The notes under the pieces are model-generated. The model was not told where the DNA came from and made no database searches. It was given only the letters and a program-made list of their open reading frames with translations. Both the position numbers and the translations under genes were made by a program. Shown here one piece after another: positions 2,314 to 59,271 of a DNA stretch of 64,000 nt (position 1 is the stretch's first letter; the number at the start of each line of letters is the position of its first letter). Location of the stretch: NCBI RefSeq assembly GCF_044647545.1, contig NZ_CP172818.1. One strand, given 5' to 3'. Source of the DNA: Escherichia coli (GTDB lineage: Bacteria; Pseudomonadota; Gammaproteobacteria; Enterobacterales; Enterobacteriaceae).

Positions 2314-3084
2314 CTAATTCACAAATCTGCGCGCGATTGCAGGATGTTCTTGTATATCGCCCAGCCAGATTGCCTCTACGTTGTGTTGTTGCAGCGGTTG
2401 AAGGAGCTCGCTTTGCGCAATCGCATTCTCACATTGAGAAAAACGGTTAATGAACCAGACTCGCCGACAACCTTGCGGTACGTTTTTAAACGCCCCCTGA
2501 GGGTGGCGAACCAGCGCAACGAGATCGCTCAGTTGCAAGGGTGCATCAGGTGTTAACCCAGTAATATCAGCAAACTGCGACCAGCGATGGACATTTTCTG
2601 TGCTCACTTTCGCACCCAAAATATGTCCTCCCATCACAGCAATCACGCAGCAACTGCTTTTAGGTATGCAAGGTTCGTGCTCATCAGGCGCTTTTAACGG
2701 CATTCCACGCGAGCCATCTGCTTCAATGAGAATTACGTCACACTCTGGTCGTTGTACCAGTGCATCAATCGCTTCTGGCGTAAATCCCTGCACTTTTCCC
2801 TGATTCGCTTTCCAGCTGTGAAAACAAAATGAAATGGGGGATATAAAAGACGCATGAGGAAGCATGGCGGGATCACGACAGAAAACCACGGGCCAGTGAG
2901 ATGTTGGCATAAACATATGTGTCGTCGTAGTGATTAATACACGCCTGCCGCTCGCCTGGAACAGTTCTGCCAGCCAAAAAAGCAAGCTGGTTTTCCCCCC
3001 AGCACCAACAACAGAAATCACAGTGGGACGTTTCTGCGCGCCTAAATCAATGAATAATGCCGATGGGTCAATTATACTTTTCAC
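2314..3084 (-). CDS. yqeC: selenium-dependent molybdenum hydroxylase system protein YqeC
   Basis: 256-aa ORF with P-loop-like GAGGKTS motif; length and context match YqeC. Confidence 0.9.
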   Translation of the reverse strand: MKSIIDPSALFIDLGAQKRPTVISVVGAGGKTSLLFWLAELFQASGRRVLITTTTHMFMPTSHWPVVFCRDPAMLPHASFISPISFCFHSWKANQGKVQGFTPEAIDALVQRPECDVILIEADGSRGMPLKAPDEHEPCIPKSSCCVIAVMGGHILGAKVSTENVHRWSQFADITGLTPDAPLQLSDLVALVRHPQGAFKNVPQGCRRVWFINRFSQCENAIAQSELLQPLQQHNVEAIWLGDIQEHPAIARRFVN

Positions 3085-3187
3085 GCGTCTTTATGGACCT
3101 CTCTGGGATAAATTATCCCCAACTTAATCCATCAGGAAGTAACGCAATTATCAGGCGTTATTAGCCCCTATAAATAATGGAACCACT

Positions 3188-44084: not shown

Positions 44085-45317
44085 TTAGTACAGCAGACGG
44101 GCGCGAATGGTACCCGGAATAGCTTTCATTGCCTGCAGCGCTTTTTCGGCAACGTCTTCGTCGGCTTCAATATCAATAACTACATAACCCATCTGGGCGG
44201 AAGTTTGTAGATATTGCGCGGCGATGTTGACGCCCTGCTCGGCAAAAATTTTGTTGAGCGCAGTTAGCACGCCCGGACGGTTTTCGTGGATGTGCATCAG
44301 ACGACGCCCACCGTGCAGTGGCAGCGAGACTTCCGGGAAGTTCACCGCAGAGAGCGTTGAGCCATTGTCAGAATACTTGATCAATTTACCCGCAACTTCC
44401 AGGCCGATATTCTCCTGCGCTTCCTGAGTCGAACCGCCAATGTGTGGCGTCAGAAGGACGTTGTCGAATTCACACAGCGGAGAGGTAAATGGATCGCTAT
44501 TGGTTGCCGGTTCCGTCGGGAATACGTCGATTGCCGCCCCCGCCAGATGTTTGCTCGCCAGCGCGTCACACAGCGCCGGAATATCCACCACAGTACCGCG
44601 CGAAGCATTAATCAGCAGCGAGCCGGGCTTCATTAGTGAAATCTCTTTCGCACTCATCATATTTTTGGTGGACGGATTCTCTGGTACATGCAGACTCACC
44701 ACATCGCTCATATTCAGCAGGTCAGAAAGATGCTGTACCTGAGTGGCGTTGCCCAGCGGCAGTTTGTTTTCAATATCATAAAAGTAAACATACATTCCCA
44801 GCGATTCAGCCAGAATGCCCAATTGAGTACCAATATGACCATAGCCGATGATACCCAGCTTTTTGCCGCGCGCTTCAAAAGAACCCGCCGCCAGTTTGTT
44901 CCACACGCCACGGTGCGCTTTAGCATTGGCTTCCGGCACGCCGCGCAATAGCAGCAGCAGTTCGCCAATCACCAGCTCCGCAACAGAGCGCGTATTTGAG
45001 AACGGTGCGTTAAATACCGGGATACCGCGTTTTGCCGCCGCATCCAGATCAACCTGGTTTGTTCCGATACAGAAACAGCCAATAGCGACCAGTTTTTCTG
45101 CGGCGTTGATCACGTCTTCAGTCAGATGGGTACGGGATCGCAGGCCGATGAAGTGGGCATCGCGGATGGATTCTTTTAATTGTTCATCATCCAGCGCGCC
45201 TTTGTGAAATTCGATGTTGGTGTAACCCGCTGCACGAAGGCTTTCAAGCGCCTTTTGGTGCACGCCTTCTACCAGCAGAAACTTAATCTTGTCTTTCTCC
45301 AGCGATACCTTTGCCAT
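44085..45317 (-). CDS. serA: D-3-phosphoglycerate dehydrogenase
   Basis: 410-aa ORF with NAD-binding GxGxxG and C-terminal ACT domain. Confidence 0.95.
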   Translation of the reverse strand: MAKVSLEKDKIKFLLVEGVHQKALESLRAAGYTNIEFHKGALDDEQLKESIRDAHFIGLRSRTHLTEDVINAAEKLVAIGCFCIGTNQVDLDAAAKRGIPVFNAPFSNTRSVAELVIGELLLLLRGVPEANAKAHRGVWNKLAAGSFEARGKKLGIIGYGHIGTQLGILAESLGMYVYFYDIENKLPLGNATQVQHLSDLLNMSDVVSLHVPENPSTKNMMSAKEISLMKPGSLLINASRGTVVDIPALCDALASKHLAGAAIDVFPTEPATNSDPFTSPLCEFDNVLLTPHIGGSTQEAQENIGLEVAGKLIKYSDNGSTLSAVNFPEVSLPLHGGRRLMHIHENRPGVLTALNKIFAEQGVNIAAQYLQTSAQMGYVVIDIEADEDVAEKALQAMKAIPGTIRARLLY

Positions 45318-45572
45318 TTACCCAATCCTGTCTTTTGAAATGTTGTGTGCGGATTTGCATCCGCCTTTCAACATATCAAAAAATAATATTGCGGCAATAT
45401 GAACGTTTGCGTCGCGATGTTGAGGAAATATCACGCAAAGGTATTTCTTGGATGAATATGCTGGTTTAGAGGATTTATTTAGAGCAATCGACAATAGCCA
45501 GGTAAAAACGTGACACATGTCACCAAATTTAATGAAGAGAATTTTTTTAACGGGGGAGGTTCCCCCGTCAGA

Positions 45573-46232
45573 TCATTTCACAATGGTTTTGACACCGTCA
45601 GGTGTGCCAATCAGCGCAACGTCCGCGCCACGGTTAGCAAACAAGCCAACAGTCACCACGCCAGGAATCGCATTTATGGCGTTTTCCATCGCTATCGGGT
45701 CAAGGATTTCCATGCCGTGGACGTCGAGGATCACGTTGCCGTTATCGGTCACCACGCCCTGACGGTATTCCGGACGACCGCCCAGTTTCACCAGCTGGCG
45801 CGCCACTGCACTACGTGCCATCGGGATAACTTCTACTGGCAGCGGGAATTTGCCCAGAATATCAACCTGCTTGGAGGCGTCGGCAATACAGATAAATTTT
45901 TCCGCAACCGAAGCAATGATTTTTTCACGGGTCAGCGCCGCGCCGCCGCCTTTGATCATTTGCATGTGGCCGTTGATTTCATCTGCGCCATCAACGTAGA
46001 TGCCAAGGCTGTCGACTTCGTTGAGATCAAAAACGTGAATGCCGAGGCTTTTCAGTTTTTCAGTGGAAGCATCTGAACTGGAAACGGCCCCTTCAATCTG
46101 GCCTTTCATTGTACCGAGCGCGTCAATAAAGTGTGCGGCGGTGGAACCTGTACCTACACCAACAATGGTGCCGGGCTGAACATACTGAAGTGCCGCCCAT
46201 CCTACTGCTTTTTTCAATTCATCCTGGGTCAT
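45573..46232 (-). CDS. rpiA: ribose-5-phosphate isomerase A
   Basis: 219-aa product from the [10 protein letters not shown] start. Confidence 0.95.
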
Positions 46233-46287
46233 GATCGTTTCGCCTGTGGTATGAAATTTCACACGCATTATATACAAAAAAAGCGAT

Positions 46288-46518
46288 TCAGACCCCGTTG
46301 GCAAGCCGCGTGGTTAACTCATCCATAAAATATCGCGCAATGGCGGGCATCCCCTTTCGCCCGGCAAATAAAGCATACAACGGTCTGGGTATGCCGCTCC
46401 ACGGTGCAAACAGGCGCACCAGTTCACCGTTCGCAAGCCCCTGTTTACAGGCAAATTGAGGCAATAACGCCACGCCATTCAACCCAACCGGGACGCGAAC
46501 TCGCCGAGCAAAATGCAT
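46288..46518 (-). pseudogene. yqfE: LysR-family regulator remnant (C-terminal fragment only)
   Basis: 76-codon frame resembling the C-terminal co-inducer domain of a LysR regulator; no N-terminal HTH region upstream. Confidence 0.6.
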
Positions 46519-46584
46519 TAGCGCAAATCCCTGATCTTATTACACAAGTATTTAATCATTATCTTTAATATAAAAGGAGTTATT

Positions 46585-46845
46585 ATGTCTATTAAGCAAA
46601 ATTTATTTGCCGCATTATTTCTTTGCACTCTCACAGGACACGCATTTGCCGCAACCGAGATACACAAACCGGACAATAATCTTGAACAGTTATCAAAAGT
46701 GAGCATGTCCACACACAATAGCAATCCAGCGGGCGTTGAAAGCCAAATCAAAAGAGAAAGCGGAAGAGTTACAAGCCAGCAATTACTACATCAGTTCTTT
46801 CTCCGTAAAAATTATATCCACGCCACTGTAATTTTCTATAAATAG
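46585..46845 (+). CDS. hypothetical small secreted protein (86 aa, predicted signal peptide)
   Basis: ATG preceded by strong RBS AAAAGGAG; N-terminal hydrophobic stretch ending in AFA; AT-rich; no recognised homolog. Confidence 0.4.
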   Translation: MSIKQNLFAALFLCTLTGHAFAATEIHKPDNNLEQLSKVSMSTHNSNPAGVESQIKRESGRVTSQQLLHQFFLRKNYIHATVIFYK

Positions 46846-47528
46846 CCCCTCTGTTTAACGGAAGCATGGAATTATTCCATGCTCCTCTGCCAAAATGAAA
46901 TAAAAAATGAAAAAAGCTAATCTTACAGGTACGTTGGTTTGCTTTGTCGCATGCCTTATTTTTTTGTCGTCCGGTGATATTTTTCGTGAAAAGCCAATCG
47001 CTCTAATATGGTTCCTTCGACAAAACATACTCTTTTTTACGGGAACTCTTGCGTGGTGTCTGATGACGCTGACGATGTGTTTATCGTTGCGTTCATCATG
47101 GCTTAACAAAGTGCTGGGCGGTCTGGATAAAGTATGGCGAATCACATAAGTGGGCAGGAATATGCGCCATAGCGTTTGCTTTCGCCCACTGGCTGGATGA
47201 AAAATTACCCCAGTTATTCGTCGCCTTTGGCTGGCTTACTCACCCTGGTAAAATCGTTGATATTAACCTGACGCCAGTACAAGAAAATTGGCTTCATGCG
47301 GGACTGTTAGCGGGTGAATGCGCAATGTTTATTATTATAGCGATGGTTTGCGTATCTCTTAGCAAAAGAGTTCCCTATCATTTATTTCATCTTGTTCACC
47401 GTTTGTTCCCCGTCTTTTATCTGGCAATTGCCTTTCATGTGTTTACTGCTTTGTTTAAATCATACTGGTGGAACTCCTGCTGCGTATTTATTAATTTTAA
47501 TTACTATTCCGGGCGTCTTTGCGGCTTT

Positions 47529-47537
47529 CATTTCGCT
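47529..47537. repeat. IS1 target-site duplication, left copy (CATTTCGCT)
   Basis: Identical 9-mer directly flanks both IS1 ends. Confidence 0.8.
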
Positions 47538-47552
47538 GGTAATGACTCCAAC

Positions 47553-47942
47553 TTACTGATAGTGTTTTATGTTCAGATAATGCCCGATGACTTTGTCATG
47601 CAGCTCCACCGATTTTGAGAACGACAGTGACTTCCGTCCCAGCCTTGCCAGATGTTGTCTCAGATTCAGGTTATGTCGCTCAATGCGCTGAGTGTAACGC
47701 TTGCTGATTACGTGCAGCTTTCCCTTCAGGCGGGATTCATACAGCGGCCAGCCATCCGTCATCCATACCACGACCTCAAAGGCCGACAGCAGGCTCAGAA
47801 GACGCTCCAGTGTGGCCAGAGTGCGTTCACCGAAGACGTGCCACAACCGTCCTCCGTATCCTGTCATACGCGTAAAACAGCCAGCGCTGACGTGATTTAG
47901 CACCGACGTAGCCCCACTGTTCGTCCATTTCAGCGCAGACAA
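47553..47942 (-). CDS. insB: IS1 InsB-like transposase C-terminal ORF
   Basis: 129 aa ending ...[54 protein letters not shown]; overlaps the insA-like ORF in a different frame. Confidence 0.7.
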
Positions 47943-48252
47943 TCACATCACTGCCCGGCTGTATGCGCGAGGTTACCGACTGCGGCCTGAGTTTTTTAAT
48001 AAAGTGACGTAAAATCGTGTTGAGGCCAACGCCCATAATGCGGGCGGTCGCCCGGCATCCAACACCATTCATGGCCATATCAATGATTTTCTGGTGTGTA
48101 CCGGGTTGAGAAGCGGTGTAAGTGAACTGCAGTTGCCATGTTTTACGGCAGTGAGAGCAGAGATAGCGCTGATGTCCGGCAGTACTTTTACCGTTACGCA
48201 CCACGCCTTCAGTAGCTGAGCAGGAGGGACAACTGATGGAGATGGAAGCCAC
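47827..48252 (-). CDS. insA: IS1 InsA-like ORF, continuing in frame into the N-terminal part of InsB (141 aa)
   Basis: Starts [40 protein letters not shown] (InsA zinc-finger/HTH) and runs past the usual A6C slippery region. Confidence 0.7.
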
Positions 48253-48307
48253 GGGAGCACCTCAAAAACACCATCATACACTAAATCAGTAAGTTGGCAC
48301 CATTACC

Positions 48308-48316
48308 CATTTCGCT
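48308..48316. repeat. IS1 target-site duplication, right copy (CATTTCGCT)
   Basis: Identical 9-mer directly flanks both IS1 ends. Confidence 0.8.
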
Positions 48317-49082
48317 GCTGAAATTCAAACGGTAGTAAAAACAAGCATCAGGCTACCATTAAAAACATTGTTAACCATCCAGGACAAATTACCGAAGTCA
48401 CCCTGGAACTGGAACATGCCATCGACTATTCTCCGGGGCAGTTTGCATTCTTAACGTTCGCACACAGTAAAGAATCTCACCCTTTTACTATCGCTTCATA
48501 CACCAAAGAGAAGAACACGTTGCGCTTTGCCATCAAAAATTTAGGGGATTATACCTCTACCCTTGCATCCTCGATAAAAATCGGCCAGTCCGCCTTCGTT
48601 GAAGGGCCATGGGGAAAGTTTGATTTAGACTCTCCCTTGCTCCCACCAGGTCTGGATAGCAGGAGGCATCGGCATTACCCCCTTTATCGCCCAGCTTGAG
48701 TATCGTAAACATCATGGCGCGTCCTCTGTTCCTGTGGATCTCTGGTATTACGTCAGCCGAAGCGAGGATGCCTGGTATGTTGATAAACTGACCTCACTTT
48801 GTGCCCAGGCCAGGGTCACACTGCATCTGCTTGATGCGCATAAAGGTGAGCGCCTACAGGCGCACTATCTTACTGATAAAATAGCAAATAAAGGTGACAC
48901 CCATTTCTGGTTTTGCGGCCCACAGAGTTTTGCCAAAGCGCTCAGCAAAGGGTTATATGAAAATGGGATTGCCAGCCAAAACTTCCATTACGACCGTTTT
49001 TGTATGCGTTAAATGCTCTGTACCCAACGCAAAATTGTGTCATAGTGCAGGAAAAAGCATTTACCAGGAGCAGACAACAGCA

Positions 49083-49976
49083 ATGAAACGCCCGGACTAC
49101 AGAACATTACAGGCACTGGATGCGGTGATACGTGAACGAGGATTTGAACGCGCGGCACAAAAGCTGTGCATTACACAATCAGCCGTCTCACAGCGCATTA
49201 AGCAACTGGAAAATATGTTCGGGCAGCCGCTGTTGGTGCGTACCGTACCGCCGCGCCCGACAGAACAAGGGCAAAAACTGCTGGCACTGCTACGCCAGGT
49301 GGAGTTGCTGGAAGAAGAGTGGCTGGGCGATGAACAAACCGGTTCGACTCCGCTGCTGCTTTCACTGGCGGTCAACGCCGACAGTCTGGCGACGTGGTTG
49401 CTTCCGGCGCTGGCTCCTGTGTTGGCTGATTCGCCTATCCGCCTCAACTTGCAGGTAGAAGATGAAACCCGCACTCAGGAACGTCTGCGCCGCGGCGAAG
49501 TGGTCGGCGCGGTGAGTATTCAACATCAGGCGCTGCCGAGTTGCCTTGTCGATAAGCTCGGTGCGCTTGACTATCTGTTCGTCAGCTCAAAACCGTTTGC
49601 CGAAAAATATTTCCCTAACGGCGTAACGCGTTCGGCATTATTGAAAGCACCTGTGGTCGCCTTTGACCATCTTGACGATATGCACCAGGCCTTTTTGCAG
49701 CAAAACTTCGATCTGCCCCCAGGCAGCGTACCGTGCCATATCGTTAATTCTTCAGAAGCGTTCGTACAACTTGCTCGCCAGGGCACCACCTGCTGTATGA
49801 TCCCGCACCTGCAAATCGAGAAAGAACTGGCCAGCGGCGAACTGATTGACTTAACGCCGGGGCTATTTCAACGCCGGATGCTCTACTGGCACCGCTTTGC
49901 TCCTGAAAGCCGCATGATGCGTAAAGTCACTGATGCGTTGCTCGATTATGGTCACAAAGTCCTTCGTCAGGATTAA
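49083..49976 (+). CDS. argP: LysR-type transcriptional regulator ArgP (IciA)
   Basis: 297-aa product from the [15 protein letters not shown] start; the 360-aa track ORF is an upstream extension. Confidence 0.93.
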
Positions 49977-50179
49977 TCCATCAAATAATGCCTGATAGCA
50001 CATATCAGGCGTTATCCTCACTTCTTTTTGTATTCCTTGAATCACATCACAAAATAGACAAATCTCAGGCGGCAAAAAACGACGTCTGAATGCATTTTTT
50101 TTGCTGGCGACAAACCCACGTAAAAAGCTCACCGTAAGCGCAAATACCCTCATTTTGATTGCGTTTTACGGAGCAAATA

Positions 50180-52323
50180 ATGTCTAACGTGCAGGAGTGG
50201 CAACAGCTTGCCAACAAGGAATTGAGCCGTCGGGAGAAAACTGTCGACTCGCTGGTTCAGCAAACCGCGGAAGGGATCGCCATCAAGCCGCTGTATACCG
50301 AAGCCGATCTCGATAATCTGGAGGTGACAGGTACCCTTCCTGGTTTGCCCCCTACGTTCGTGGCCCGCGTGCCACTATGTATACCGCCCAACCGTGGACC
50401 ATCCGTCAGTATGCTGGTTTTTCAACAGCAAAAGAGTCCAACGCTTTTTATCGCCGTAACCTGGCCGCCGGGCAAAAAGGTCTTTCCGTTGCGTTTGACC
50501 TTGCCACCCACCGAGGCTACGACTCCGATAACCCGCGCGTGGCGGGCGACGTCGGCAAAGCGGGCGTTGCTATCGACACCGTGGAAGATATGAAAGTCCT
50601 GTTCGACCAGATCCCGCTGGATAAAATGTCGGTTTCGATGACCATGAATGGCGCAGTACTACCAGTACTGGCGTTTTATATTGTCGCCGCAGAAGAGCAA
50701 GGTGTTACACCCGATAAACTGACCGGCACCATTCAAAACGATATCCTCAAAGAGTATCTTTGCCGCAACACCTATATTTACCCGCCAAAACCGTCAATGC
50801 GTATTATCGCAGACATCATCGCCTGGTGTTCCGGCAACATGCCGCGATTTAATACCATCAGTATCAGCGGTTACCATATGGGTGAAGCGGGTGCCAACTG
50901 CGTGCAGCAGGTAGCATTTACGCTCGCTGATGGGATTGAGTACATCAAAGCAGCAATCTCCGCCGGGCTGAAAATTGATGACTTCGCTCCTCGCCTGTCG
51001 TTCTTCTTCGGCATTGGCATGGATCTGTTTATGAACGTCGCCATGTTGCGTGCGGCACGTTATTTATGGAGCGAAGCGGTCAGTGGATTTGGCGCACAGG
51101 ATCCGAAATCACTGGCGCTGCGTACCCACTGCCAGACCTCAGGCTGGAGCCTGACTGAACAGGATCCGTATAACAACGTTATACGCACCACCATTGAAGC
51201 ACTGGCTGCAACGCTGGGCGGTACTCAGTCACTGCATACCAACGCCTTTGATGAAGCGCTTGGTTTGCCTACCGATTTCTCAGCACGCATTGCCCGCAAT
51301 ACCCAGATCATCATTCAGGAAGAATCAGAACTCTGCCGCACCGTCGATCCACTGGCCGGATCCTATTACGTTGAATCGCTGACCGATCAAATCGTCAAAC
51401 AAGCCAGAGCCATTATCCAACAGATCGACGAAGCCGGTGGCATGGCGAAAGCGATCGAAGCAGGTCTGCCAAAACGAATGATCGAAGAGGCCTCAGCGCG
51501 CGAACAGTCGTTGATCGACCAGGGCAAGCGTGTCATCGTTGGTGTCAACAAGTACAAACTGGATCACGAAGACGAAACCGATGTACTTGAGATCGACAAC
51601 GTGATGGTGCGTAACGAGCAAATTGCTTCGCTGGAACGCATTCGCGCCACCCGTGATGATGCCGCCGTAACCGCCGCGTTGAACGCCCTGACTCACGCCG
51701 CACAGCATAACGAAAACCTGCTGGCTGCCGCTGTTAATGCCGCTCGCGTTCGCGCAACGCTTGGTGAAATTTCCGATGCACTGGAAGCGGCATTTGACCG
51801 TTATCTGGTGCCAAGCCAGTGTGTTACCGGCGTGATTGCGCAAAGCTATCATCAGTCTGAGAAATCGGCCACCGAGTTCGATGCCATTGTTGCGCAAACG
51901 GAGCAGTTCCTTGCCGACAATGGTCGTCGCCCGCGCATTCTGATCGCCAAAATGGGCCAGGATGGGCACGATCGCGGCGCGAAAGTGATCGCCAGCGCCT
52001 ATTCCGATCTCGGTTTCGACGTAGATTTAAGCCCGATGTTCTCTACACCTGAAGAGATCGCCCGCCTGGCAGTAGAAAACGACGTTCACGTAGTGGGCGC
52101 ATCTTCACTGGCTGCCGGTCATAAAACGCTGATCCCGGAACTGGTCGAAGCGCTGAAAAAATGGGGACGCGAAGATATCTGCGTGGTCGCGGGTGGCGTC
52201 ATTCCGCCGCAGGATTACGCCTTCCTGCAGGAGCGCGGCGTGGCGGCGATTTATGGTCCAGGTACGCCTATGCTCGACAGCGTGCGCGACGTACTGAATC
52301 TGATAAGCCAGCATCATGATTAA
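50180..52323 (+). pseudogene. scpA: methylmalonyl-CoA mutase ScpA (Sbm) with a 1-nt frameshift near 50348-50352
   Basis: First 57 codons in one frame (ORF 50159-50593), the rest including the conserved [22 protein letters not shown] in the -1 frame (ORF 50377-52323); span is 1 nt short of a 714-aa ORF; C-terminal B12-binding region present. Confidence 0.75.
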
Positions 52324-59137: not shown

Positions 59138-59271
59138 TCAATATTCCTTTTCAACTGACTCAAAATGGAGAAATACACTCCGCCGCCTTATGACGGGCAG
59201 TCTGACAAGGGTAAACAATAAAGCATAATTTTGCCAAATAGATCACAGATTTCTCATCTGTATCCTCTGGC

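Follow-up and report, generated by a model that had tools for sequence, protein, structure and literature searches.

The yqfE-argP spacer in the window and in K-12

The spacer between yqfE and argP raises the question of whether E. coli K-12 has lost DNA at this site or whether the present strain has gained it. In the window, that is the whole stretch of 64,000 nucleotides that was analysed, this spacer (46519-49082) spans 2,564 bp as against 141 bp in MG1655, where it lies between the end of yqfE at 3059611 and the start of argP at 3059753; a first-pass annotation, which gave roughly 0.14 kb for K-12 and about 2.56 kb here, is borne out by these figures. Its statement that the rpiA-yqfE and argP-scpA spacings are K-12-like also holds, serA-rpiA-yqfE and argP-scpA being collinear with K-12. 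When the window was compared by BLAST with the K-12-type locus L003, positions 44750-46542 and 49027-50849 aligned and the middle did not, which leaves 2,484 bp (46543-49026) with no K-12 counterpart. The extra DNA was rightly called AT-rich: its GC content, leaving out the IS1, is 43.0%, compared with 51.2% for the window and 52-55% for serA, rpiA and argP. We found no tRNA, integrase or flanking direct repeat at the segment, an RNA-family scan returned a single sub-threshold chance match, and promoter and terminator scans were uninformative, with counts at or below the shuffle expectation. The three contents first proposed, namely a small secreted-protein ORF, a decayed ferric-reductase-like gene and an IS1, were all recovered. 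The features of the locus are as follows.

46288-46518, minus strand: yqfE-like ORF, 76 aa
46288-46480, minus strand: stump of a LysR-type regulator gene (last 64 codons and stop), homologue of K-12 yqfE; collinear with bases 1539-1731 of loci L001 and L002 and 100% identical to ECONIH1
46480-46481: junction of deletion D1, joining L001/L002 base 1731 to base 3078
46481-46568, plus strand: last 88 bp of an FMN-dependent NADH-azoreductase gene, aligned to L001 3078-3165, the end of the CDS 2536-3165
46543-49026: DNA missing from K-12 (deletion D2), from the BLAST comparison with L003
46585-46845, plus strand: gene for a DUF1471 (YdgH/BhsA/McbA-family) periplasmic protein, an open ORF of 86 aa with signal peptide
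46907-49012, plus strand: frameshifted ferric-reductase-like gene, whole extent, from alignment to the intact 441-codon gene
46907-47537, plus strand: 5′ part of this NOX-family gene, covering codons 1 to about 210; frameshifts at 47140 (+1) and 47471 (-2)
47529-47537: left copy of the IS1 target duplication, CATTTCGCT, 9 bp, read directly
47538-48307, minus strand: defective IS1, 770 bp, with 23-nt inverted repeats
48308-48316: right copy of the target duplication, CATTTCGCT, 9 bp
48317-49012, plus strand: 3′ part of the NOX-family gene, coding for the FAD and NAD(P)H domains; frameshifts at 48326 (+1) and 48627 (+1)
49083-49976, plus strand: argP, the intact right flank

The inactivated content that had been suspected was confirmed by the frameshifts and the IS1 in the genes of the segment. 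The NOX-like copy of the window has no uninterrupted frame, since it is broken by its four frameshifts and by the IS1 at 47538. The intact protein, on the other hand, has Pfam matches to Ferric_reduct (residues 45-174), FAD_binding_8 and NAD_binding_1, and its closest solved structure is the S. pneumoniae NOX (8qt6/8qq7, E = 4e-26). The filters of Hajjar et al. ask for an FAD motif H[PSA]F[TS][LIMV], two His-x12-14-His motifs in transmembrane helices, separated by 20 residues or more, and 3-7 helices (PMC5676040). The intact allele passes all the sequence filters of that 2017 study, with HPFTI at 265 as FAD motif, GIGITP at 327 for the second motif filter, and the haem motifs H80-x13-H94 and H164-x12-H177, both inside the Ferric_reduct match. 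A simple hydropathy scan of the intact allele gave about five stretches, with the H164-H177 motif in a hydrophobic one and the H80-H94 motif outside them at the cut-off used. At least six independent events have inactivated the NOX-family gene in Escherichia: IS1 inserted on two separate occasions, three different stretches were deleted within the gene in other species, and the K-12-type deletion removed it. The azoreductase was usually kept, and such repeated inactivation suggests that the NOX-like gene is costly or dispensable.

The IS1 possesses the terminal inverted repeats and the 9-bp target duplication of its family. When its lesions were called against the ECONIH1 copy, we observed a +4 insertion at the A6C frameshift site (47998-48001), which fuses InsA to InsB, and a -2 deletion at 47839 in insB, which shortens the fusion to 141 aa, the longest product. 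InsA and the InsAB' transposase are thus not translatable, and with these two lesions no full IS1 transposase is possible. An IS1 at the same site and in the same orientation is found in ECONIH1 and 34 other genomes.

Two deletions and the origin of yqfE

The DNA lost from the window through D1 amounts to 1,346 bp: codons 1-234 of the regulator gene, the 100 bp between the divergent genes and some 181 codons of the azoreductase gene. In the window the junction reads GCCACGCCATTC on its left and AACCCAACCGGG on its right, without microhomology at CATTC/AAC, and it is identical in K-12, ST131, O157 and ampC_0069. The 76-aa yqfE ORF takes its ATG, at 46518, and its first 12 codons from the antisense azoreductase tail. 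Judged from its sequence, yqfE of K-12 is the C-terminal stump of the cassette regulator fused to this antisense tail; as yqfE is part of the cassette, the relic starts at 46288 and not at 46519, where the first-pass annotation had placed it, and the true junction lies at 46480/46481.

K-12 carries both D1 and D2, whereas the window carries D1 only, and so it lacks the regulator, the promoter region and the azoreductase. The D2 site in K-12 is filled by 62 bp of unrelated sequence, with no significant similarity to the cassette or to the other Escherichia loci. K-12-type alleles have five substitutions within 38 bp to the right of the D1 junction that are absent in the window, and one metagenome contig shows an independent 94-bp deletion beginning 2 bp from the D1 left breakpoint. 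Both yqfE and the 62 bp that follow it in K-12 belong to the cassette, so the full arrangement came first and that of K-12 descends from it; the polarity is that of a deletion in K-12, not of an insertion here. K-12 and about 95% of E. coli have lost the cassette through D1 and D2, and yqfE is the scar of that loss.

The intact cassette and its distribution

A search for strains with an intact version, as had been advised, found the cassette intact between rpiA and argP in NZ_AP022222. Four genes make it up: a divergently transcribed LysR regulator gene of 897 bp, a gene for an FMN-dependent NADH azoreductase or quinone reductase, a gene for an 86-aa, Sec-exported DUF1471 periplasmic protein, and one for a 441-aa inner-membrane flavocytochrome of the NOX/ferric-reductase family. 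The 100-bp spacer between regulator and operon in the intact allele contains the dyad ATTGTT-N10-AACAAT, and the LysR divergent-operon layout present there was removed by D1 in the window.

Of the complete E. coli genomes, about 4% have the cassette intact between yqfE and argP. Any DUF1471-reductase DNA was found in 247 of the 5,426 complete genomes (4.6%), and most of it in 228-230, in line with the first description of a strain-variable islet that K-12 lacks. The short junction is found in all remaining genomes, those of the K-12 lineage, ST131 and O157 among them, so the 2.5 kb is not carried by K-12 and most E. coli. ECONIH1 has the same IS1 as the window with its regulator and azoreductase complete, and ST405-type relatives show additional IS1-adjacent deletions at this locus. 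In three other Escherichia species the cassette lies at the same site, broken and at species-level divergence; decay has largely spared their regulator, azoreductase and DUF1471 genes, and the NOX-like gene has a different internal deletion in each. In Salmonella all four genes recur in unchanged order at a different locus (identities of 71%, 73%, 37% and 51%), which adjoins an integrase fragment. Our literature search found nothing on the origin of yqfE, on the cassette or on any experiment with it.

The function of the intact cassette can be proposed from its domains and gene order. The LysR regulator would switch on one operon, whose soluble flavoenzyme would reduce electrophiles in the cytoplasm, while the membrane enzyme would take electrons from cytoplasmic NAD(P)H and hand them, via FAD and a pair of b-type haems, to an acceptor at the periplasmic face. 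Candidate acceptors are O2, Fe(III) or a quinone, or else a protein partner, for which the DUF1471 protein is a possible choice.

A cluster of changes private to the window

Twelve small changes private to the window, eight indels and four substitutions, lie in the 2,148 bp of 46481-48628, as against nine in the other 61.9 kb (P = 4.5e-13). The indel to substitution ratio is 2:1 and some of the changes are clustered within 2-11 bp. The tract extends to one side only, all of it within 2.1 kb to the right of the D1 junction. The adjacent 13.5 kb of the window are 100% identical to ECONIH1, and the rest of the window has no essential-gene frameshift and only two coding substitutions; given this identity and these two substitutions, we rejected a genome-wide mutator. 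The D1-only allele occurs in none of the 5,426 complete genomes and the D1-specific pattern in no metagenome contig, six control metagenome contigs with the DUF1471 upstream region being all in the full state where the contig reaches that far. Relatives found through scpA are all in the full state or the K-12 state, no exact match to three window-specific ORFs was found in a 153-billion-gene index, and a 101-bp loss after bglA is matched by no complete genome. Gene conversion from a K-12-type donor was also rejected, since the junction-spanning matches in the 5,426 genomes are all at most 94.6% identical and the collection therefore lacks a donor whose flanking bases would fit.

For this private allele, biology and a flaw in the source sequence are equally likely causes. 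It may tentatively be supposed that the private features (D1 on this background, the eight indels and the four substitutions) represent a poorly resolved, patched or reference-influenced assembly stretch or an edited sequence, and that the real strain is in the ECONIH1 state, in which the regulator and azoreductase would be complete, the DUF1471 gene intact and the NOX-like gene split by the IS1 alone. The density of private changes favours such a flaw, as does their 2:1 ratio and clustering, which misfit neutral decay at the tiny divergence from ECONIH1. D1 is moreover an exact K-12 junction beside ST405-type bases, as a consensus on a K-12-type scaffold would give, and the allele is absent from the complete genomes and metagenome contigs, as are the three ORFs from the gene index. 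However, the remaining window is clean and its essential genes are free of frameshifts, so this is not a generally poor assembly, and the other structural differences from ECONIH1 match neither K-12 nor, for the bglA loss, any complete genome, which leaves a simple reference-guided origin unsupported. A K-12-guided assembly in particular was rejected, as K-12 does not share the other indels that distinguish the window from ECONIH1. The lesions also all fall in already non-functional DNA, as expected of real mutations filtered by selection. Even if the private lesions are source errors, the ECONIH1 state still has an IS1-disrupted NOX-like gene.

It is unlikely, by comparison, that the allele is real and arose from one local double-strand break in the regulator/azoreductase region, with 1,346 bp lost and error-prone synthesis over about 2 kb rightward. 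In E. coli, the repair of a break can introduce mutations nearby, and a strictly one-sided tract that starts at the junction is consistent with it. The K-12-type alleles with five substitutions in 38 bp right of the same junction point the same way, and the metagenome deletion 2 bp from the same left breakpoint is a hint of a fragile site. Such repair nevertheless leaves unaccounted for a D1 right end identical to that of K-12 without microhomology, and the collection holds no donor with this junction and these flanking bases. Were the D1-only allele real, which we regard as improbable, it would be the only intermediate sampled on the way from the intact cassette to the yqfE scar, and the tract would be the footprint of mutagenic repair at a recurrently fragile site. 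The private cluster is a warning about the quality or provenance of this source stretch.

A probable non-functional relic

The segment is very probably a non-functional relic of a four-gene cassette that was ancestral at the rpiA-argP site in Escherichia. With D1, the double frameshift of the DUF1471 gene, the split NOX-like gene and the broken IS1, we infer that the segment is dead and that no working product is expressed from it.

The small secreted-protein ORF noticed at first is indeed open, with 86 aa and a signal peptide, but it is not intact. It stays open because two frameshifts, +1 at 46750 and -1 at 46804, compensate each other, leaving 18 codons out of frame, so that residues 57-74 read RESGRVTSQQLLHQFFLR where the intact protein reads EKAEELQASNYYISSFSG. 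The intact allele, which has a precomputed Pfam PF07338 match, scores 53.1 bits against the BhsA model and the window copy 21.8, where the equivalog cut-off is 90. We therefore find it highly improbable that the reductase alone is dead and that this gene still yields a small secreted stress protein: the open ORF does keep its signal peptide (AFA/A), ribosome-binding region and native C-terminal 12 residues, but the out-of-frame codons belong to the conserved core, the family score has dropped accordingly, the operon promoter and regulator are deleted, and no promoter-like site was found in the window upstream of the ORF on its strand. Read-through transcription from upstream into the ORF is possible.

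A recently acquired islet, inserted beside yqfE in the lineage of this strain, is hardly credible, as low GC (the single island-like trait of the segment), the patchy occurrence in 4.6% of genomes and the Salmonella copy at a different locus beside an integrase fragment are outweighed by the pieces of cassette in K-12 (yqfE and the 62 bp after it), by the shared site of the cassette in three other Escherichia species, where its divergence is at species level, and by the lack here of a tRNA, integrase or flanking direct repeat. An ancient acquisition of the cassette by the genus is possible.

As a relic of an ancestral cassette, the segment is an ordinary pseudogene remnant, and intact copies of each gene are catalogued in RefSeq; being dead DNA, it is of little consequence for the window itself. 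For K-12, the orphan pseudogene yqfE gains a concrete origin in a lost LysR/azoreductase/DUF1471/NOX-like cassette, and ST69-type strains naturally provide an intact enterobacterial NOX homologue that can be studied.

Comparison with known systems

The intact allele shares with SpNOX (8qq7, 8qt6) a multi-helix N-terminal ferric-reductase domain, two His-x12-14-His motifs, FAD and NAD(P)H domains, HPFT and GIGITP. The match is distant and covers mostly residues 135-425 of the intact protein, and the window copy, by contrast, is a pseudogene. The EcNOX of Hajjar and colleagues (UniProt L2VL28, strain KTE10) may be either the cassette protein or the second E. coli paralogue, P0109, at 38% identity.

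The K-12 pseudogene yqfE (b2915) corresponds to 46288-46518, with the same 76-codon ORF and the same junction, but unlike the window the K-12 locus has the second deletion, which removes the DUF1471 and NOX-like genes, and the five substitutions in 38 bp. The likeness to IS1 lies in the 23-nt repeats, the 9-bp duplication and insA/insB with the A6C site; the element of the window has 770 bp instead of 768 bp, with +4 at the frameshift site and -2 in insB.

In the reactive-chlorine operon of E. coli, rclABC/rclR, a divergent regulator stands beside genes for a cytoplasmic flavin reductase, a periplasmic DUF1471 protein and a membrane protein. The layout of the cassette would be analogous, and its DUF1471 protein matches the RclB model weakly (27.7 bits, all NCBIfam scores for the cassette being far under the curated cut-offs). 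However, the cassette regulator is of the LysR and not the AraC type, and the flavoenzyme and membrane protein differ. In the MsrQ (YedZ)/Fre chain, a di-haem membrane protein with a ferric-reductase domain takes electrons from a cytoplasmic flavin reductase to the periplasm, where they reach MsrP (PMC5676040). The cassette differs from this chain in having no molybdoenzyme partner and in the fusion of its reductase domains to the membrane domain.

An inactivated accessory segment between yqfE and argP

The first-pass annotation had described an AT-rich, strain-variable islet that K-12 lacks, and its listed contents, namely a secreted-type small ORF, a decayed ferric-reductase-like gene and an IS1, were all found as described. 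In the window, 2,564 bp separate yqfE from argP, compared with 141 bp in MG1655 (3059612-3059752), in agreement with the estimates of ~2.56 and ~0.14 kb, and the GC content of this spacer without IS1 is 43.0%, against 51.2% for the whole window. The interval, with scpA next in order after argP, is organized as follows.

Features of the serA-argP interval in the window
44085-45317, minus strand, serA
45573-46232, minus strand, rpiA
46288-46518, minus strand, yqfE-like ORF of 76 codons
46585-46845, inside the yqfE-argP spacer, signal-peptide ORF of 86 aa (DUF1471)
46907-49012, inside the spacer, ferric-reductase-like gene split by IS1
47538-48307, IS1 with 23-nt inverted repeats and the 9-bp duplication CATTTCGCT
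49083-49976, plus strand, argP

When a K-12-type locus (L003) was aligned by BLAST, only the flanks (window 44750-46542 and 49027-50849) matched, and thus 46543-49026 is missing from K-12, where an unrelated 62-bp filler takes its place. Among 5,426 complete E. coli genomes, any of the DUF1471-reductase DNA was found in 247 and most of it in 228-230, while all remaining genomes have the short junction; the segment is strain-variable.

The intact cassette and its distribution

An intact version does exist. In NZ_AP022222, four genes separate rpiA from argP.

Genes of the intact cassette in NZ_AP022222
LysR-family regulator, 897 bp, minus strand
FMN-dependent NADH azoreductase, 209 aa
DUF1471 protein, 86 aa
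"Ferredoxin reductase family protein" (the reductase), 441 aa

The 100-bp divergent intergenic region of this allele contains the dyad ATTGTT-N10-AACAAT. In one scan of species-representative genomes, three other species of the genus (Escherichia whittamii and those represented by MOD1-EC7003 and E1V33) had the cassette at the identical position between rpiA and argP, with 87-98% nucleotide identity. All three retain an intact azoreductase and two of them intact regulator and DUF1471 genes, while the reductase gene harbors an internal deletion in each species, different every time. The four genes recur with their order unchanged in Salmonella enterica (L026, L027), at an unrelated chromosomal locus (protein identities of 71%, 73%, 37% and 51%), and an integrase (arm-binding) fragment adjoining them in one contig suggests past mobility. 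The window's copy has neither a tRNA nor an integrase nor a flanking repeat to mark it. Given the same-site copies in other Escherichia and the conserved order in Salmonella, the cassette is a conserved unit of long standing in Escherichia, and its low GC content points to a possible acquisition in the distant past.

Two deletions and the origin of yqfE

At the base level, window 46288-46480 corresponds to the final 193 bp of the regulator gene, and from 46481 the alignment resumes at the final 88 bp of the azoreductase gene. Since the two gene ends abut, the window lacks 1,346 bp (deletion D1): the first 234 codons of the regulator, the 100-bp intergenic region between the divergent genes and some 181 codons of the azoreductase. 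The junction (CATTC/AAC, no microhomology) is identical in K-12, ST131, O157 and one phylogroup-D-like strain, all of which additionally have a second deletion (D2) that takes out the DUF1471 and reductase genes. Because K-12-type genomes have exactly the D1 junction, the K-12 pseudogene yqfE is a chimera of the regulator C-terminus and 38 bp of antisense azoreductase tail, the source of its ATG. This origin of yqfE, as a cassette scar, is worth keeping. The islet interpretation stands overall but has to be refined, as the alignments show that the short K-12 state was derived from the full cassette and not the reverse.

Immediately right of the D1 junction, all K-12-type genomes have 5 substitutions in common within 38 bp of what was the azoreductase tail (L003 1732-1769), a divergence of about 13% compared with only about 1% in the neighbouring regulator stump. 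Mutations are clustered here beside the old deletion junction. The 62-bp filler (MG1655 about 3059635-3059696; L003 1793-1854) resembles neither the cassette nor the other Escherichia loci at any detectable level. A K-12-type scar subtype (ampC_0069 and O157:H7) has a further 45-bp deletion within the yqfE stump, and the yqfE-like ORF is absent from the annotation of these genomes. In metagenome contig QZLL01001069.1 (L007, about 620-640), a 94-bp deletion inside the regulator gene starts 2 bp from the left breakpoint of D1, which hints at a fragile site; an ERIC-like element of 120 bp has inserted between rpiA and the regulator gene both in this contig and in L016.

Lesions in the window's copy

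Lesions were scored by comparison with ECONIH1 and GCA_029964605, the closest genomes and both ST405-type. The DUF1471 gene has +1 at 46750 and -1 at 46804, putting 18 core codons out of frame and lowering its family score from 53.1 to 21.8 bits. The NOX-like reductase gene carries frameshifts at 47140 (+1, codon 78), 47471 (-2, codon 189), 48326 (+1) and 48627 (+1), and is interrupted by IS1 at about codon 210. Within IS1, a +4 insertion (47998-48001) exactly at the A6C programmed-frameshift site joins InsA and InsB in one frame and alone would yield a constitutive InsAB' fusion; a separate -2 deletion at 47839 ends the fusion at 141 aa. D1 took away the promoter of the operon along with the regulator and the region it binds, and no promoter-like site was found in the window upstream of the DUF1471 ORF on the same strand. 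Taken together, these lesions bear out the earlier claim of inactivated content, and the segment reads as a dead relic. The same IS1 insertion is common to 35 complete genomes, and in some of these, deletions next to the IS1 have removed further parts of the locus; an IS1A insertion in strain SCU-313 is an independent event.

A private allele

Outside this segment the window differs very little from ST405-type genomes, with 100.0% identity over 24 kb and zero differences from ECONIH1 in the 13.5 kb left of the junction. The allele carrying D1 only was found in none of the 5,426 complete genomes and in no metagenome contig, and look-ups of three of its ORFs found them absent from the record. 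The 2,148 bp directly right of the D1 junction contain all twelve of its small private changes (8 indel events and 4 substitutions), compared with 9 in the other 61.9 kb (binomial P = 4.5e-13). The junction is that of K-12, yet the neighbouring bases are ST405-type: K-12-type alleles all depart from them by 5-6 substitutions, and across the junction no genome matched better than 94.6%.

This allele could stem from a stretch of the source record that is patched or locally of poor quality, although the K-12-guided assembly version of such an artefact was tested and found no support; a real, locally mutagenic repair event seems to us about equally likely. A K-12 junction among ST405-type bases is hard to reconcile with simple descent, with ordinary gene conversion or with independent recurrence. 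The provenance of bases 46481-48628 deserves a flag.

Other differences in the window

In scpA (methylmalonyl-CoA mutase), C6, as in ECONIH1, is reduced to C5 at 50347 near the 5' end, a frameshift that leaves a 648-aa ORF from 50377. It is a natural polymorphism, since the identical product is recorded for numerous further E. coli contigs and the alignment of the window with two loci (L021 and L024) has no gap there. Between bglA and gcvP, GCT (33008-33010) replaces a 101-bp REP-containing spacer that all close relatives have and turns the bglA stop from TAA to TAG; this junction occurs in no complete E. coli genome. Private intergenic indels relative to ECONIH1 are a 2-bp loss at 605 (after yqeA/arcC), a 1-bp loss at 30358 (in a REP element after ygfZ) and a 7-bp loss with two adjacent substitutions at 59263 (mscS/fbaA). 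The ygfF gene of K-12 is missing from the window's lineage.

The cassette and the NOX family

A working scheme for the intact cassette can be inferred from its domains, its gene order and existing knowledge of SpNOX and MsrQ. The LysR regulator would sense a redox or electrophile signal and activate the divergent three-gene operon. The soluble FMN enzyme would use NADH to reduce quinones or azo compounds, the membrane flavocytochrome would take electrons from NAD(P)H in the cytoplasm and deliver them, via FAD and two haems, to an acceptor on the periplasmic side, and the exported DUF1471 protein, whose family is associated with stress from peroxide, acid, copper and chlorine, would act periplasmically.

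The intact reductase has the Pfam domains Ferric_reduct (residues 45-174), FAD_binding_8 and NAD_binding_1. It passes every sequence filter by which Hajjar et al. 2017 (PMC5676040) defined bacterial NOX proteins, with HPFTI at 265, GIGITP at 327, H80-x13-H94 and H164-x12-H177, and its top solved-structure match is S. pneumoniae NOX (8qt6, 8qq7; E = 4e-26). The NOX-like family is very large (>5,000 relatives at E <= 1e-20), and the E. coli pan-genome holds a second paralogue (P0109, 435 aa), 38% identical to the cassette protein. The "EcNOX" cloned by Hajjar et al. 2017 (UniProt L2VL28, strain KTE10; PMC5676040) may be this paralogue or else the cassette protein. The cassette is made of gene families already catalogued and the window locus is an ordinary decayed accessory locus; also worth keeping is the finding of a NOX-family gene lost repeatedly and independently across Escherichia.
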